Assembly: GCF_000008565.1 (NCBI RefSeq)
Contig: NC_001263.1
Coordinates: 2,162,956 to 2,194,955 of the forward strand
Source of the DNA: Deinococcus radiodurans R1 = ATCC 13939 = DSM 20539
Lineage (GTDB): Bacteria > Deinococcota > Deinococci > Deinococcales > Deinococcaceae
Direction of reading: 5' to 3'
DNA length: 32,000 nt
Position 1 is the first letter of the stretch, and every line of letters begins with the position of its first letter. Both the position numbers and the translations under genes were made by a program. The notes beneath the pieces are model-generated. The model saw nothing but the letters and a program-made list of their open reading frames with translations, had not been told where the DNA came from and searched no databases. This document shows, piece after piece, positions 14,181 through 23,855 of this stretch.

Positions 14181-14191
14181 GTAAAACGAAA

Positions 14192-14233
14192 GAGGGGCAC
14201 GTCCAAGTTACGGACGCGCCCCTCTTTTCTTTC
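14192..14233. terminator. bidirectional terminator between purB and the V4R-like gene
   Basis: 13-bp stem GAGGGGCACGTCC (14192-14204) / GGACGCGCCCCTC (14212-14224) with one mismatch. TTTTCTTTC follows on the plus strand and TTTCGTTTT on the minus strand. Confidence 0.6.
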
Positions 14234-14244
14234 TGCCGTCAGCT

Positions 14245-14709
14245 TTACAGCGGGCTGAACACGAAGCGGTCGTACTCGCCGCCGCGCAGCACGCTTTCGG
14301 TGTGCTCGCCGAGGAAGGTCTGGCCGGTGATGGCTTCCAGCGCGCCCCACACCGCACCCAGGGTAAAGGTGCACTTGCGGTCGCTGCCCTGCTCCTCGCC
14401 CGCGCTGCACACGGTGTCGAAGCAGTCGACGATGTAGTTGTCGCCGTCCTTGACCACGCTGTGCACGCCGGTCAGGCGGGTGCCGTCCTTGCCGATGGCG
14501 CCATTGAGCAGCTCGGCGAGTTGTTCGGTGGGCACGTTGGCGCCGGTCACGCCGAGTTCACCGGCGAGGTTGTGGCCGCGCACCTTGCCGGCGCGGGTAA
14601 AGACCACGGCGGCGCCGTCGGGGCCGAGGGTGTCCTCGATCCCGGTAATCACAGCTTTGAAGCAGACGACAGAGTTGAAGTCACCGAGGGTGGGTCGCAG
14701 TTCGGACAT
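14245..14709 (-). CDS. V4R-like (4-vinyl-reductase-type small-molecule-binding) domain protein, last gene of the GTPase module
   Basis: ATG start with AAGGAG SD. The C-terminal half KCTFTLGAVWGALEAITGQTFLGEHTESVLRGGEYDRFVF fits my recollection of the V4R pattern (C.F..G...G....G......E......G.....F). The family call is tentative. Confidence 0.55.
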   Translation of the reverse strand: MSELRPTLGDFNSVVCFKAVITGIEDTLGPDGAAVVFTRAGKVRGHNLAGELGVTGANVPTEQLAELLNGAIGKDGTRLTGVHSVVKDGDNYIVDCFDTVCSAGEEQGSDRKCTFTLGAVWGALEAITGQTFLGEHTESVLRGGEYDRFVFSPL

Positions 14710-14766
14710 TGAGGTACTCCTTGAGGGGGAAAGAAGTCAGAAGGACAGGGCGGGAAGGGCAGAAGC

Positions 14767-15144
14767 TCAGAGCACCAGCGCGACGGTGCGCGCGGCGTCA
14801 CGGGCTTCCATGTGCAGCAGGCCGAGGTTCATGCCGGTGGGGGTCACGACGGCGAGCACGCCCTTGCGGCCCGTGGCGTACACGTACACCTGACCGTCGG
14901 CGCCGCTCACCGACATCTCGGTCAGTTCGCCGGTGCCCAGCGTGTCGTTGATGCGCTTGCCCAGACCCAGGGCGGTGGCGGCCATCGCGGCCACGCGGTT
15001 GGAGTCGGTGGTGTCGCTGAACGACTGCGCAATCGGCAGGCCGTCGGTGGTCGCCACCAGGGCGCCGCGAAGTTCGGGGAGAGACGTGCGCAGGCTCTGG
15101 AGGGTGGCCTGGAGTTGTTGCTGTTTGCTGGCGGGGGCGGTCAT
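14767..15144 (-). CDS. Roadblock/LC7 (MglB/CvnB-like) domain protein
   Basis: 125 aa. LPELRGALVATTDGLPIA ... GQVYVYATGRKGVLAVVT is the typical Roadblock/LC7 pattern. The ATG overlaps the upstream stop (ATGA at 15141-15144). Confidence 0.8.
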   Translation of the reverse strand: MTAPASKQQQLQATLQSLRTSLPELRGALVATTDGLPIAQSFSDTTDSNRVAAMAATALGLGKRINDTLGTGELTEMSVSGADGQVYVYATGRKGVLAVVTPTGMNLGLLHMEARDAARTVALVL

Positions 15145-15695
15145 GCGGTCTCCTTTTCAGTCTGGGTTCCGGATTCGGACTGAGTCTCGGGGGTGAGTTG
15201 CGATTCGAGCAGGTGGATCAGCACCTGCCGGGCGCTGTCGGGTTCGGTGGCCTGAAGGCCAATCACCTGTTCGGTCGGCAGGTCAAAGTAGCTGGCAATG
15301 TCCTGCGGGCTCCAGACGTCCTCGAGGTCCTGGCGGGTGACGCCGACCACGAAGGGCACCGGGTTCCGGCTGGTGATGAATTCGAGAATGTGCCGGGCGT
15401 GCAAAAAGTCCTGCGGGCGGTTGCCGGCGACCAGAAGAACCAGCCCCAGCGCGCCTTCACACAGCACGTCCCACATGAAGTCGAAGCGGTCTTGGCCCGG
15501 CGTGCCGTAGAGGTGCAGCTCGGTGCCGTCGAGAATGAGCGTGCCGAAGTCGAAGGCGACGGTGGTGGTGGCCTTGCCGATGTCCTCGCTGGCATCGGCC
15601 TCGGTGCTGACGACCGGGGTTTCGGACAGGGTCTGGACAAAGGTGGTCTTGCCCGCCCCAACCGGGCCGGAGACGACGAGTTTCATAGGAATCAT
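15141..15695 (-). CDS. small P-loop GTPase (MglA/CvnD-like, COG2229-type)
   Basis: G1 GPVGAGKTT, G2 region TTTVAFDF and G3 LYGTPGQDRF. The G4 position reads TRQD instead of NKxD. The ATG overlaps the upstream stop (ATGA at 15692-15695). Confidence 0.85.
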   Translation of the reverse strand: MIPMKLVVSGPVGAGKTTFVQTLSETPVVSTEADASEDIGKATTTVAFDFGTLILDGTELHLYGTPGQDRFDFMWDVLCEGALGLVLLVAGNRPQDFLHARHILEFITSRNPVPFVVGVTRQDLEDVWSPQDIASYFDLPTEQVIGLQATEPDSARQVLIHLLESQLTPETQSESGTQTEKETA

Positions 15696-16327
15696 GCAGA
15701 ACTTCCTCCAGTCAGGCGTCGCAGGGCGCTCAGCAACCTGCGAACAGGACCAGCGGGCTGGGCGCTGACCTGGGCCTGCGCGGCGGCCCGTTGCGGGGCA
15801 ATCAGGCCAGCGGCGCGCAGACGGTAGAGCTCGGCTCGGGCTTCGGGCAGGCTGACCCGCAACTGGCCTGACAGGTCCGTCGCCGAGGCCCCGTGCTGAA
15901 GCAGCGGCGAGAGCGACGCCCAGCTCGCCCGCAGCGCTTCGGGCAGCGCCACCGAGCGCGCCGACGGCACGACCTCGAAGCGAGTGTCGGGGTGCGGGAG
16001 CTGCTGCTCGGGAATCGCGCTGCCGCTCAGGGCTTCACGAATCAGCTCGTTCACGGGCAGCGCAAAGTGGTACTCGGTCGGGCCAGCCTCAAAGCTGTAC
16101 TCGCCGCGCGCTCCATTCACGAGTTGCGCCACCGTGTCGCGGACGCGCAGCGGCTCGCTCACGGGAAAGCCGTCGATAAAGATTGCTTGCAAGGTGCCCT
16201 GTTGCAGGTGCAGCTCCACGCTGCGGCCCGCCAGAGCGGTGCGCATAAACAGCACGCCGGTATGGCGCTGGAGCACCTTCATGATGTCGTTGAATGCGTG
16301 GTACTCGAAGTCACCGTAAATGGCCAA
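15692..16327 (-). CDS. DUF4388-like N-terminal domain with DUF742/CvnC-like wHTH C-terminus, first gene of the GTPase module
   Basis: The only possible start is TTG 16325-16327, because an in-frame TAG lies two codons upstream; AGAGG serves as SD. N-terminal YGDFEYHAFNDIMKVLQRHTGVLFM and C-terminal SATDLSGQLRVSLPEARAELYRLRAAGLI. Family calls are from memory. Confidence 0.6.
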   Translation of the reverse strand: MAIYGDFEYHAFNDIMKVLQRHTGVLFMRTALAGRSVELHLQQGTLQAIFIDGFPVSEPLRVRDTVAQLVNGARGEYSFEAGPTEYHFALPVNELIREALSGSAIPEQQLPHPDTRFEVVPSARSVALPEALRASWASLSPLLQHGASATDLSGQLRVSLPEARAELYRLRAAGLIAPQRAAAQAQVSAQPAGPVRRLLSALRRLTGGSSA

Positions 16328-16600
16328 GGTCTATCATCCGCCTCTTTGCCTGAATCTGGGGCCGGTCGGCTGAACTCTCGCGCTCCCTTGGGCACCCGGC
16401 AAGGACTGTAGGCGCGGAGTTCTTACACTTGTCTCACCCTGATCGGCACCCTGATCTCACAGCCGACTCTTTCACCGTCAGCCGTGGCAAATCAGGGCGA
16501 TGCCGCGCCCCAGCATACCTGTCCCAGGTACGCTTTTTCTGGGCTTTTCTTAGCCCTTGGAGCGACAAATGAGACTTCACTTCGTTAACAAAAGGTCGGC

Positions 16601-17233
16601 TCAGACGCCGCCGTTCGACTCTTCCCCCAGCTCGTAGGGCGCGGGCGGCAGGTCCGTCAGCAGCGGCCCGAAGGTCACGTCGCCATGAGCCGACACCGCC
16701 AGCACCCGGCGCTCGGCAAGGCTCCAGATGGCGCGGTGCACCGCCATTTCGCGCTCGGCGTGGCCTCCGGGGGCCAGAGCGTCAAGCAGCGCGGTGTAAC
16801 GCGGGACGGGCGGCTGGCCCCCGGTGAGCGGGCTGGCATCGGCCACGCGGGTCAGCACCCGGCGCTCCTCGGGGGTGGTCGCGTGGCTCAGCGCCTGCGC
16901 CCGCAGCTGCTGCTGCGCGGCCCGCTGTTCGCGTGCGTGACGGCGGGCGGCCAGGGCGGCGTCCACCTCCGGCGACAGCGGTTGCCCCCGCTCCTGCCGG
17001 CGCTGCTCGATCAAGTGTTCCAGACGCTCCTCAGCCCGGTTGCGCACCTGGCCGCGCAGGTCCTCGCCGCGCCCGCGCAAGTTGCCGGTCACGTCCTGCA
17101 CGCGGGGGTCGGTCAGCGCCCGCCCGGCGAGCTGCGACGCCAGCGCCCGCACCCGCACGCGCCCCGGCAGCTTCTGGCCCGGCGTGTCCGCTTCCGGCGG
17201 ATGGCTTTGCCTCTTCGCTGAGGGTTTGAACAT
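16601..17233 (-). CDS. hypothetical protein (Arg/Gln-rich, probably helical)
   Basis: ATG start and a GC3-rich 210-aa ORF. No family recognised. Confidence 0.5.
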   Translation of the reverse strand: MFKPSAKRQSHPPEADTPGQKLPGRVRVRALASQLAGRALTDPRVQDVTGNLRGRGEDLRGQVRNRAEERLEHLIEQRRQERGQPLSPEVDAALAARRHAREQRAAQQQLRAQALSHATTPEERRVLTRVADASPLTGGQPPVPRYTALLDALAPGGHAEREMAVHRAIWSLAERRVLAVSAHGDVTFGPLLTDLPPAPYELGEESNGGV

Positions 17234-18673: not shown

Positions 18674-18763
<90 letters not shown>

Positions 18764-18790
18764 AAGCTTCGCAAGGAGCACATGACAATC

Positions 18791-18885
<95 letters not shown>

Positions 18886-18909
18886 AGCAGTACCCGAGTA
18901 ACACCCGAG

Positions 18910-18988
<79 letters not shown>

Positions 18989-23775: not shown

Positions 23776-23855
<80 letters not shown>

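Follow-up and report, generated by a model that had tools for sequence, protein, structure and literature searches.

Four adjacent genes of Deinococcus radiodurans chromosome 1, DR2182, DR2181, DR2180 and DR2179, form a real operon-like unit. They lie in a window of 32,000 nucleotides (nt), the whole stretch of DNA that was analysed, and all positions given are window positions. In transcriptional order the genes encode a PATAN/DUF4388 protein with a winged helix-turn-helix (wHTH), a small GTPase of the MglA family, a Roadblock protein and a V4R-fold protein. The reading proposed here, held with a confidence that is about evenly balanced, is that the unit constitutes a soluble, co-transcribed MglA Group 5/MglB/PATAN switch that is extended by a V4R-fold sensor protein acting on the Roadblock regulator.

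All four genes are on the minus strand. DR2182 spans positions 15692-16327 (211 amino acids (aa), TTG start), DR2181 15141-15695 (184 aa, ATG start), DR2180 14767-15144 (125 aa, ATG start) and DR2179 14245-14709 (154 aa, ATG start); the accessions of the four proteins are AAF11732, AAF11728, AAF11729 and AAF11733, the last of these being DR2182 (AAF11733.1). These coordinates confirm what a sequence-only reading of the stretch had described as four tight minus-strand open reading frames (ORFs). Confirmed as well are the translational coupling by ATGA stop/start overlaps, between DR2182 and DR2181 at 15692-15695 and between DR2181 and DR2180 at 15141-15144, and the placing of the fourth gene after a gap of 57 nt (14710-14766) with its own ribosome-binding site. 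By direct read this site is AAGGAG at 14717-14722 (minus strand), 7 bases 5′ of the ATG at 14709. The start of DR2182 had been assigned to the TTG at 16327 on account of an in-frame TAG, and the frame 5′ of the TTG does read TGA TAG ACC TTG. An internal ATG at codon 16 is a possible alternative start on sequence alone. The TTG is favoured because the N-terminus MA[IL][YF]GD is kept in all full-length DR2182 orthologues and because GenBank AAF11733.1 is the identical 211-aa protein. An intrinsic terminator at 14189-14227 (minus strand; 17-bp stem with 10 G-C pairs and a T-rich tail) ends the operon, and a terminator scan found none of similar strength inside the four-gene unit.

Published expression data bear on the unit as a whole. 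In a droxyR mutant, in which reactive oxygen species accumulate, the list of the 36 most strongly induced genes includes all four (Chen et al., 2008). Induction is 5.3-fold for DR2181, 4.9-fold for DR2179, 3.9-fold for DR2182 and 3.8-fold for DR2180. DR2179 was also up 2.3-fold after H2O2 treatment (p = 0.064), and DR2179 and DR2182 are listed in the microarray as 'predicted proteins' (Chen et al., 2008). The co-induction is experimental support for co-regulation of the four genes. Taken with the overlaps, the terminator and the recurrence of the four families described below, it upholds the earlier view that the genes are one operon-like unit.

The GTPase assignment of DR2181 is borne out by a match to Pfam ATP_bind_1 (PF03029) at an E-value of 8.6e-22; Arf and Ras are matched also. 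The motifs are as first read, with G1 GPVGAGKT, G3 GTPGQ (in full, YGTPGQ) and G4 TRQD, and switch I is TTTV. GPVGAGKT, TTTV and [YF]GTPGQ are found in 48 of 49 module GTPases, the G3 having a Gln and no Asp, as in MglA. An intrinsic switch-I arginine, as in MglA, is not evident in DR2181. The G4 motif, tallied in 44 of the 49 proteins, is TRQD in 19, TH-x-D in 24 and TYTD in one. None of these 44 variants carries a lysine; Thr and Asp are retained. As no canonical lysine form is among the tallied variants, the TRQD deviation is a family trait and not an accident. The G4 Asp is the specificity-determining residue in GTPases, and its retention suggests that DR2181-type proteins still use guanine nucleotides.

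Prokaryotic MglA-family GTPases have been divided into five groups, of which Group 2 comprises the conservons and is actinobacterial (Wuichet and Søgaard-Andersen, 2014; PMC4316618). DR2181 is a Group 5 member. The corresponding row of Table S2 of that paper gives MglA Group 5, Deinococcus radiodurans R1, DR_2180, <MglB<MglA<PATAN and 184, and 184 aa is the length of the window GTPase. An mglB (Roadblock) gene is expected within four genes of such a GTPase, and here the start codon of DR2180 shares an ATGA with the stop codon of DR2181. A canonical G4 of [NT]KxD is stated for Groups 1, 4 and 5 (PMC4316618), from which the T[RH]xD of DR2181-type proteins departs.

DR2180 matches Pfam Robl_LC7 (PF03259) at an E-value of 1.9e-21 and 76 bits, against a cut-off of 23, and the Roadblock/LC7 assignment thereby stands. 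Against the MglB equivalog model NCBIfam NF052242 it scores 14 bits, where the cut-off is 200, and fails. Its sequence matches in the PDB are Roadblock proteins, including CvnB5 (3leq, E 4e-4). Judged by these matches, DR2180 is a Roadblock protein that is not an orthologue of the Thermus-type MglB.

DR2182 itself has no Pfam family at E ≤ 1 and no NCBIfam match. At the family level, however, DUF4388 (PatA_N, PF14332) is matched by 12 of 23 orthologues (best E 1.3e-5) and HTH_20 by 6 of 23, which agrees with the earlier proposal of a DUF4388-like domain fused to a wHTH. The homologue in one related locus (L003 in our numbering) is annotated PF14332 and that in L113 matches it at 1.5e-7; the PATAN/DUF4388 label also appears in NCBI and UniRef names for DR2182-type proteins, and DR2182 is labelled PATAN in Table S2 of PMC4316618. 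The DUF742-like identity that had been suggested alongside is not supported: DUF742 (PF05331) is matched by only one of the 23 orthologues, at E 0.024, and when the DR2182 family is aligned profile to profile (hhalign) with the DUF742 proteins of six conservons, the similarity is weak (17% probability, E 0.0015, 60 columns). The aligned region consists of the wHTH core and the C-terminal helix only.

The AlphaFold2 (AF2) model of DR2182, with a mean predicted local distance difference test score (pLDDT) of 85.6, displays an N-terminal domain rich in beta strands, followed by a wHTH-like domain of three helices and then, after a disordered linker, a terminal helix. A Foldseek search of the PDB with this model gave no significant match, and the PATAN fold is therefore without a solved relative. 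The C-terminal amphipathic helix, PVRRLLSALRRL, follows a short linker and is conserved across phyla. PATAN proteins of all lineages surveyed share the arrangement of wHTH, variable linker and C-terminal amphipathic helix, the helix being PVRRLLxALRRL in Deinococcus, SFLxNLVGFLK in Cyanobacteria and SLLLRLIAGVRGL in a group of about 45% identity with the gene order Roadblock-PATAN-GTPase. Giant PATAN proteins of 1090-1220 aa, in which an extremely acidic repetitive linker separates the wHTH from a basic C-terminal tail, are encoded at three metagenome Roadblock-PATAN-GTPase loci (L139, 860-4126; L147, 1299-4967; L159, 782-4219). In PADLOC, residues 25-180 of DR2182 weakly match Csa3, a CRISPR-associated regulator with CARF and wHTH domains (E 1.5e-4, 19.9 bits). 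This match is probably driven by the wHTH; it also spans part of the PATAN domain.

The fourth protein, DR2179, is by its predicted structure and by transitive homology a stand-alone V4R/Bet3(TRAPPC3)-fold protein. Neither DR2179 nor any of 25 Deinococcus orthologues matches Pfam V4R (PF02830) at E ≤ 10, and DR2179 has no NCBIfam match. The family is small: a search of 1.84 billion proteins yields 106 representatives at E ≤ 1e-3. Pfam V4R is matched by 5 of 33 diverse family members (best E 1.3e-11), and a profile of the diverse family against the PDB places MJ1460 (E 0.0027), PoxR and MopR on top. TEAD, which a Deinococcus-only profile had returned from the PDB, was set aside as spurious when the diverse alignment gave V4R proteins. 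The AF2 model is of high confidence (pLDDT 94.1; predicted template modelling score, pTM, 0.89). In Foldseek it finds the PoxR/MopR/DmpR sensor domains first (E ~2e-6, template modelling score (TM) ~0.66) and then many Bet3/TRAPPC3 chains, including a Thorarchaeota TRAPPC3. There are 47 PDB chains at E ≤ 1e-3, with TM about 0.6-0.68, and all matches listed are V4R sensor domains or entries that contain Bet3/TRAPPC3. The V4R/Bet3-fold identity therefore comes from transitive homology, the AF2 model and Foldseek, without a direct Pfam match, and it is on those terms that the earlier V4R-like call holds. More generally, the V4R, DUF742 and DUF4388 assignments all fail when single window sequences are searched with profile hidden Markov models (HMMs); deeper methods rescue V4R and DUF4388.

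Residues C16, C101 and E105 are kept in essentially all of the ~94 sequences of the DR2179 family that were examined. C113 is mostly kept and is missing in about a third of the cyanobacterial copies; it is the sole DR2179 cysteine that aligns with a V4R cysteine. Where the Pfam-positive subgroup has a C-terminal C..C..C, DR2179 has SVLRGG..D.F, and it lacks a PoxR/MopR-type Zn site (a helix Cys with C-terminal Glu/Cys/Cys), keeping C16, C101 and E105 instead. In one family member (P0179, 210 aa) the V4R-like domain is preceded by a HAMP domain in the same chain, which suggests that the family has a signalling form close to the membrane. Two other candidates for V4R-like repeats or fusions, P0239 (1140 aa) and P0276, proved to be TPR or low-complexity artefacts. 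The V4R name for DR2179 and for a second D. radiodurans protein, DR1611, goes back to Omelchenko et al. (2005; PMC1274311), and stand-alone V4R proteins are described as having 'no clear function' (PMC3791482).

Neighbourhoods were surveyed with HMMs built from the four window proteins and longest-ORF calls, in which starts are often over-extended and gaps consequently negative; taxon labels are record titles, and some loci are near-duplicates. A V4R-centred genome scan gave 80 loci, from Deinococcus, other Deinococcales, Verrucomicrobiota, many Cyanobacteria and Myxococcota. Linkage was counted at 63 V4R-like genes with at least 3 kilobases (kb) of flank on both sides. A Roadblock gene lies within 400 bp on the same strand at 55 of these 63, so that Roadblock and V4R-like genes are a near-obligate pair when seen from the V4R side. 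All four families are on one strand at 39 of the 63 loci, in three phyla (Deinococcota, Verrucomicrobiota and Cyanobacteria): 18 of 20 loci in Cyanobacteria, 12 of 25 in Deinococcus, 4 of 4 in other Deinococcales and 4 of 7 in Verrucomicrobiota. With P, G, R and V standing for the PATAN, GTPase, Roadblock and V4R-like genes, the order is P-G-R-V in Deinococcota and Verrucomicrobiota, and V-R-G-P, V-R-P-G or P-R-V-G in Cyanobacteria. The linkage survives this rearrangement of gene order, which argues that it is functional. In a test of neighbourhood conservation, as suggested in the sequence-only reading, the four genes are co-conserved with their order permuted.

A second R-V pair is present in D. 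radiodurans itself, where DR1611 and a Roadblock gene (L001, 5567-6474, CP150840.1) are found without a GTPase or PATAN gene. The pair is inserted between the genes for the small and large subunits of an aconitase-family (Fe-S) enzyme. An ArsR-type HTH gene is just upstream of it on the opposite strand. Identity is 70% between the two V4R copies, DR2179 and DR1611, and 76% between the Roadblock copies. Deinococcus copies of the four-gene type and of the pair type do not form separate clades by mean distance, so no simple single-duplication history can be claimed. A mirror-tree correlation of r = 0.84 between R and V proteins was set aside as a sign of co-evolution, since it is confounded by shared phylogeny.

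From the GTPase side, a metagenome scan of 80 loci shows the core to be PATAN-GTPase-Roadblock, or Roadblock-PATAN-GTPase in a distant group of ~45% identity. In 13 of 18 well-flanked close relatives a protoglobin gene begins 10-19 nt after the Roadblock gene, and it is Pfam-confirmed in L113. The slot after the Roadblock gene is either empty or filled by a V4R-like or a protoglobin gene. This makes the V4R-like protein an accessory, the occupant of a slot that is otherwise held by a recognised sensor domain. Protoglobin genes also accompany 11 of 86 V4R-centred loci. Over both scans protoglobin (PF11563) recurs by modules at L003, L004, L041, L059, L065-L068, L070, L074, L083, L088 and L112-L128. 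In a thermophile-like metagenome series it stands directly after the Roadblock gene, where Deinococcus has the V4R-like gene. On a Thermus plasmid the order is IclR-DUF4388-GTPase-protoglobin-EAL-HD-GYP.

The sequence-only reading had noted the absence of an adjacent kinase, and this proves general: there is none in the window, and among 86 related loci a kinase lies within 1 kb at only five, none of them being a consistent neighbour. The kinases near modules have unrelated architectures, namely GAF-histidine kinase, PAS hybrid and ETR1_N-GAF hybrid; in Nostocales a HisKA_3 kinase and a LuxR response regulator are slightly beyond 1 kb. In rare Deinococcus cases the gene for a GAF-GAF-HisKA-HATPase kinase of ~1100 aa follows the V4R-like gene in the same direction, at a distance of 31-95 nt (L014, 7490-10789, Deinococcus rufus; L042, 7554-10790, a D. 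yunweiensis plasmid).

In the reading favoured here, that of a Group 5 switch with a V4R-fold sensor, the DR2180 Roadblock dimer would set the nucleotide state of DR2181, as a GTPase-activating protein and/or an exchange platform, in the way that MglB acts on MglA. DR2179 would bind the Roadblock protein and tune its activity upon a redox change or the binding of a metal or a small hydrophobic ligand. Sensing could take place via the Cys16/Cys101/Glu105 (plus Cys113) site and an internal cavity. GTP-bound DR2181 would be read by DR2182, a putative DNA binder or adaptor, which may dock via its conserved C-terminal amphipathic helix.

The slot after the Roadblock gene is taken as the sensory input because protoglobin replaces the V4R protein in sister modules. 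The earlier suggestion of V4R as the input thus gains comparative support, protoglobin being a known sensor domain in the same post-Roadblock position. A sensor role for DR2179 is inferred from the protoglobin interchange, the HAMP fusion, the conserved cysteines, the response to loss of OxyR and the precedent of MsvR, in which V4R cysteines act as a redox switch (PMC3729527). The V4R domains of PoxR, MopR and DmpR bind phenols and Zn. A physical contact between Roadblock/longin and V4R folds is plausible by analogy with the TRAPP core, a longin dimer flanked by Bet3-family subunits, and with a Heimdall archaeal protein that fuses longin and TRAPPC3 (PMC10933270). A bolder proposal, rather unlikely as it stands, is that the Roadblock and V4R pair may be a bacterial counterpart of the TRAPP core, a platform for an MglA-family GTPase that would be gated by redox, metal or hydrophobic ligand at Cys16/Cys101/Glu105.

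Several observations weigh against a Group 5 switch with a V4R input. From the GTPase side, a V4R-like gene is present in only ~5 of the 80 metagenome loci, and D. proteolyticus has P-G-R without one. Conversely, 24 of 72 R-V pairs stand alone with no GTPase nearby, and the pair may therefore have a GTPase-independent role. The protoglobin loci of the GTPase-centred scan are largely from one sample series and so are not independent, and on the Thermus plasmid P-G and protoglobin occur with no Roadblock or V4R gene annotated. Canonical V4R domains have C-terminal zinc ligands, CxxC...C, that are missing from DR2179. Lastly, the droxyR mutation could raise expression of the four genes by an indirect route.

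The stand-alone pairs, DR1611 between the aconitase-family subunit genes among them, also lend themselves to a different account, in which R-V is a metabolite- or redox-binding regulator that merely shares a promoter with a separate PATAN-GTPase switch. P-G without R-V on the Thermus plasmid is consistent with this, as is locus L004, which holds only R-V-protoglobin. Such an arrangement of two independent units is nonetheless distinctly unlikely: Roadblock is the established partner of the MglA family, P-G-R is the dominant triad, an ATGA overlap couples translation of GTPase and Roadblock protein, and the four genes stay linked through order permutations in three phyla. Another account retains the physical partnership and removes the sensing. 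The TRAPP-like core folds (Bet3 fold, Roadblock/longin fold and small GTPase) are all encoded at DR2182-DR2179, and DR2179 might be a structural subunit that senses nothing and forms with the Roadblock dimer a constitutive guanine nucleotide exchange factor (GEF). The Foldseek matches to Bet3/TRAPPC3 in TRAPP-Rab complexes and to Thor-TRAPPC3 point in this direction, together with the tight R-V gene pair and the TRAPP core itself, which pairs longin with Bet3-family subunits and touches Rab in the MglA/MglB geometry (PMC10933270). However, the ligand-binding sensor domains of PoxR, MopR and DmpR outrank Bet3 structurally, the position is interchangeable with that of protoglobin, a sensor, and the conserved cysteines and HAMP fusion point to signalling. 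As most P-G-R modules also work without a V4R-like protein, a purely structural scaffold appears unlikely.

The sequence-only reading had framed the locus as conservon-like, and a degenerate conservon is the rival that follows from it: DR2180, DR2182 and DR2181 would be CvnB, CvnC and CvnD, the kinase CvnA would have been lost, and the products would form a membrane-associated heterocomplex as in Streptomyces. The PF03029 match is compatible with this, as are the 35-41% identity of DR2181 to Streptomyces CvnD-type proteins and the name 'ATP/GTP-binding protein' that PGAP gives to both. The Roadblock proteins belong to the same Pfam family, with the CvnB5 match in the PDB, and hhalign does pair the wHTH core and C-terminal helix of DR2182 with DUF742. 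Yet the locus belongs to MglA Group 5, and the conservons to the actinobacterial Group 2 (PMC4316618). The DUF742 evidence is as thin as given above, the order is P-G-R-V and not A-B-C-D, the G4 is T[RH]xD and not NxFD, and there is no CvnA-type gene nearby, the few kinases found close to related modules being of unrelated architectures. Of the supposed B, C and D equivalents, the Roadblock and GTPase families stand and the DUF742/CvnC equivalent is not supported; with MglA group, gene order and G4 at variance, the conservon-like framing does not fit, and a kinase-less conservon is very improbable. An anti-phage or other mobile defence module is scarcely credible. The weak Csa3 match of DR2182 is the only one of its kind, the other three proteins having no defence-family match in PADLOC, and some copies of the module are on plasmids, but the neighbourhood is a housekeeping one and the module is conserved within lineages.

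Sequence features and genes around the unit are as follows. A TGTAAGA box, a candidate promoter or operator element, is at 16421-16427 (minus strand), 100 nt 5′ of the DR2182 TTG. Of 18 Deinococcus-type upstream regions, 7 contain TGTAAG[AT], five of them at 100-106 nt; the mean in shuffled sequences is 1.0. The seven are those of the window, L008, L009, L014, L016, L026 and L039; they include two near-duplicate pairs and so amount to about five independent cases. The box may be a -10-like or an operator element, and would imply a leader of ~100 nt. Further upstream there are two copies, at 12-bp spacing, of a 10-bp direct repeat, CACCCTGATC (16435-16456), and a 90% inverted copy lies at 16491-16500, 47 nt away; all copies are 110-170 nt 5′ of the DR2182 start. 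The repeat was not seen in the closest related loci, L008 and L009. A DR2183-like ORF (16601-17233, minus strand, 210 aa) is on the same strand 273 nt upstream of DR2182. Its product has no Pfam or NCBIfam match, and the members of its protein cluster are from D. radiodurans and a close Deinococcus relative. The gene is not a recurrent neighbour of the module in the census and is absent from the list of the 36 genes most induced in the droxyR mutant. Housekeeping genes surround the unit (purB, cytidine deaminase, CNNM and tRNAs). Of the tRNA genes, Ser-TGA, Ser-GCT and Arg-ACG form a cluster at 18675-18988 and tRNA-Pro-GGG stands apart at 23776-23852, all on the plus strand.

Other gene types adjoin related modules elsewhere. 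Genes for cyclic di-GMP turnover are found next to some of them: EAL and HD-GYP genes follow DUF4388-GTPase-protoglobin on the Thermus brockianus plasmid pTbrSNM4-1b (L088, 2590-8337). An HD_5 (HD-GYP-like) gene is directly after the V4R-like gene in L025 (7494-8153), and in three further loci, also from Deinococcus (L021, L022 and L037), HD_5 homologues are at most 5 kb from the module. A gene for a protein with MerR and pentapeptide repeats is near the V4R-like gene in Pseudanabaena (L078, L081, L085 and L087) and also in L054 and L060; in L081, L085 and L087 it is directly upstream. This neighbour recalls MfpA, the pentapeptide partner of the mycobacterial conservon GTPase MfpB; cyanobacteria are rich in such proteins, and the likeness may be coincidence.

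Most of the domain assignments guessed in the sequence-only reading were right. The statement that this architecture has no functional description in Deinococcus is essentially right, although more had been published than it allowed for. Three of the four genes are listed together as PATAN, MglA and MglB (PMC4316618), the V4R call for DR2179 has been made (PMC1274311) and the co-induction is on record (Chen et al., 2008). The conserved pairing of Roadblock and V4R/Bet3 proteins on Group 5 modules, the protoglobin interchange and the conserved cysteine site were not found described. Neither the Roadblock-V4R gene pair nor the four-gene unit was found in the open-access text searched, which did not include the PATAN paper of Makarova et al. 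(2006).

The unit points to an unexplored regulatory module in the Deinococcus oxidative-stress response. It is open to use, with linkage across phyla, a genetically tractable host and an expression cue, de-repression in the droxyR mutant. If the proposed mechanism is true, it would show how a soluble sensor, V4R or protoglobin, feeds into a Ras-like switch with no kinase involved, and the module would serve in bacteria as a model of the contacts among Roadblock/longin, Bet3 and GTPase on which TRAPP is built. Asgard GTPases cannot be matched to their Roadblock and TRAPPC3 partners, as the genes are unlinked; in DR2182-DR2179 the linkage is explicit. Should the pair be a counterpart of the TRAPP core, the partnership of GTPase, Roadblock/longin and Bet3 fold would no longer be confined to eukaryotes and Asgard archaea, and stand-alone V4R proteins would gain a first defined function.

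Among known systems, the closest are the MglA Group 5-MglB-PATAN clusters (PMC4316618; Makarova et al., 2006, as cited there), which include the same locus and have the same families and adjacency. The Table S2 row gives MglB, MglA and PATAN only, with the fourth gene and protoglobin unrecorded, and V4R is absent from the main text. Group 5 G4 motifs are called canonical there, whereas the DR2181 subgroup has T[RH]xD; Group 1, 4 and 5 neighbourhoods are noted in the main text to vary widely. With the MglA/MglB polarity switch of Myxococcus xanthus and Thermus thermophilus (Group 1) the unit shares a Ras-like GTPase that has a catalytic Gln and no G3 Asp, and a Roadblock-dimer partner encoded next to the GTPase. 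The Group 1 pair of D. radiodurans is another one, DR_0853 (PMC4316618), and DR2180, as seen above, falls far short of the MglB equivalog model; nor is the unit known to be linked to motility.

Like the unit, the actinobacterial conservons (CvnA-D; MfpB/MfpA in mycobacteria) encode a Roadblock protein and a small protein in which a wHTH is combined with a C-terminal helix; their GTPase is likewise of the PF03029 type and has no G4 lysine. Accessory sensor-like genes (GAF, P450) come after the conservon GTPase gene. In the six conservons compared, the gene in the CvnA position is annotated 'ATP-binding protein' in four and 'hypothetical protein' in two. The Deinococcus unit differs in the lack of a CvnA kinase, the replacement of DUF742 by PATAN-wHTH, and in gene order, MglA group, G4 and phylum.

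The V4R domains of PoxR/MopR/DmpR and MsvR include the best structural matches of DR2179; one conserved cysteine is shared in the alignment, and MsvR offers the precedent of cysteine redox control. Unlike these proteins, DR2179 stands alone and is not fused to an AAA+ or HTH output, has a helix-1 cysteine (C16) instead of the C-terminal CxxC...C, and has a Roadblock protein as its proposed partner. The same three folds come together in the TRAPP core, a Rab GEF, and in the Asgard GTPase, Roadblock and TRAPPC3 proteins (Tran et al., 2024; PMC10933270), although DR2179 and Bet3 are only 10-16% identical in sequence and the Deinococcus unit is not known to act at membranes or vesicles. In the Asgard genome studied the genes are generally not in operons (PMC10933270), whereas the Deinococcus module is bacterial and is linked in a single operon.

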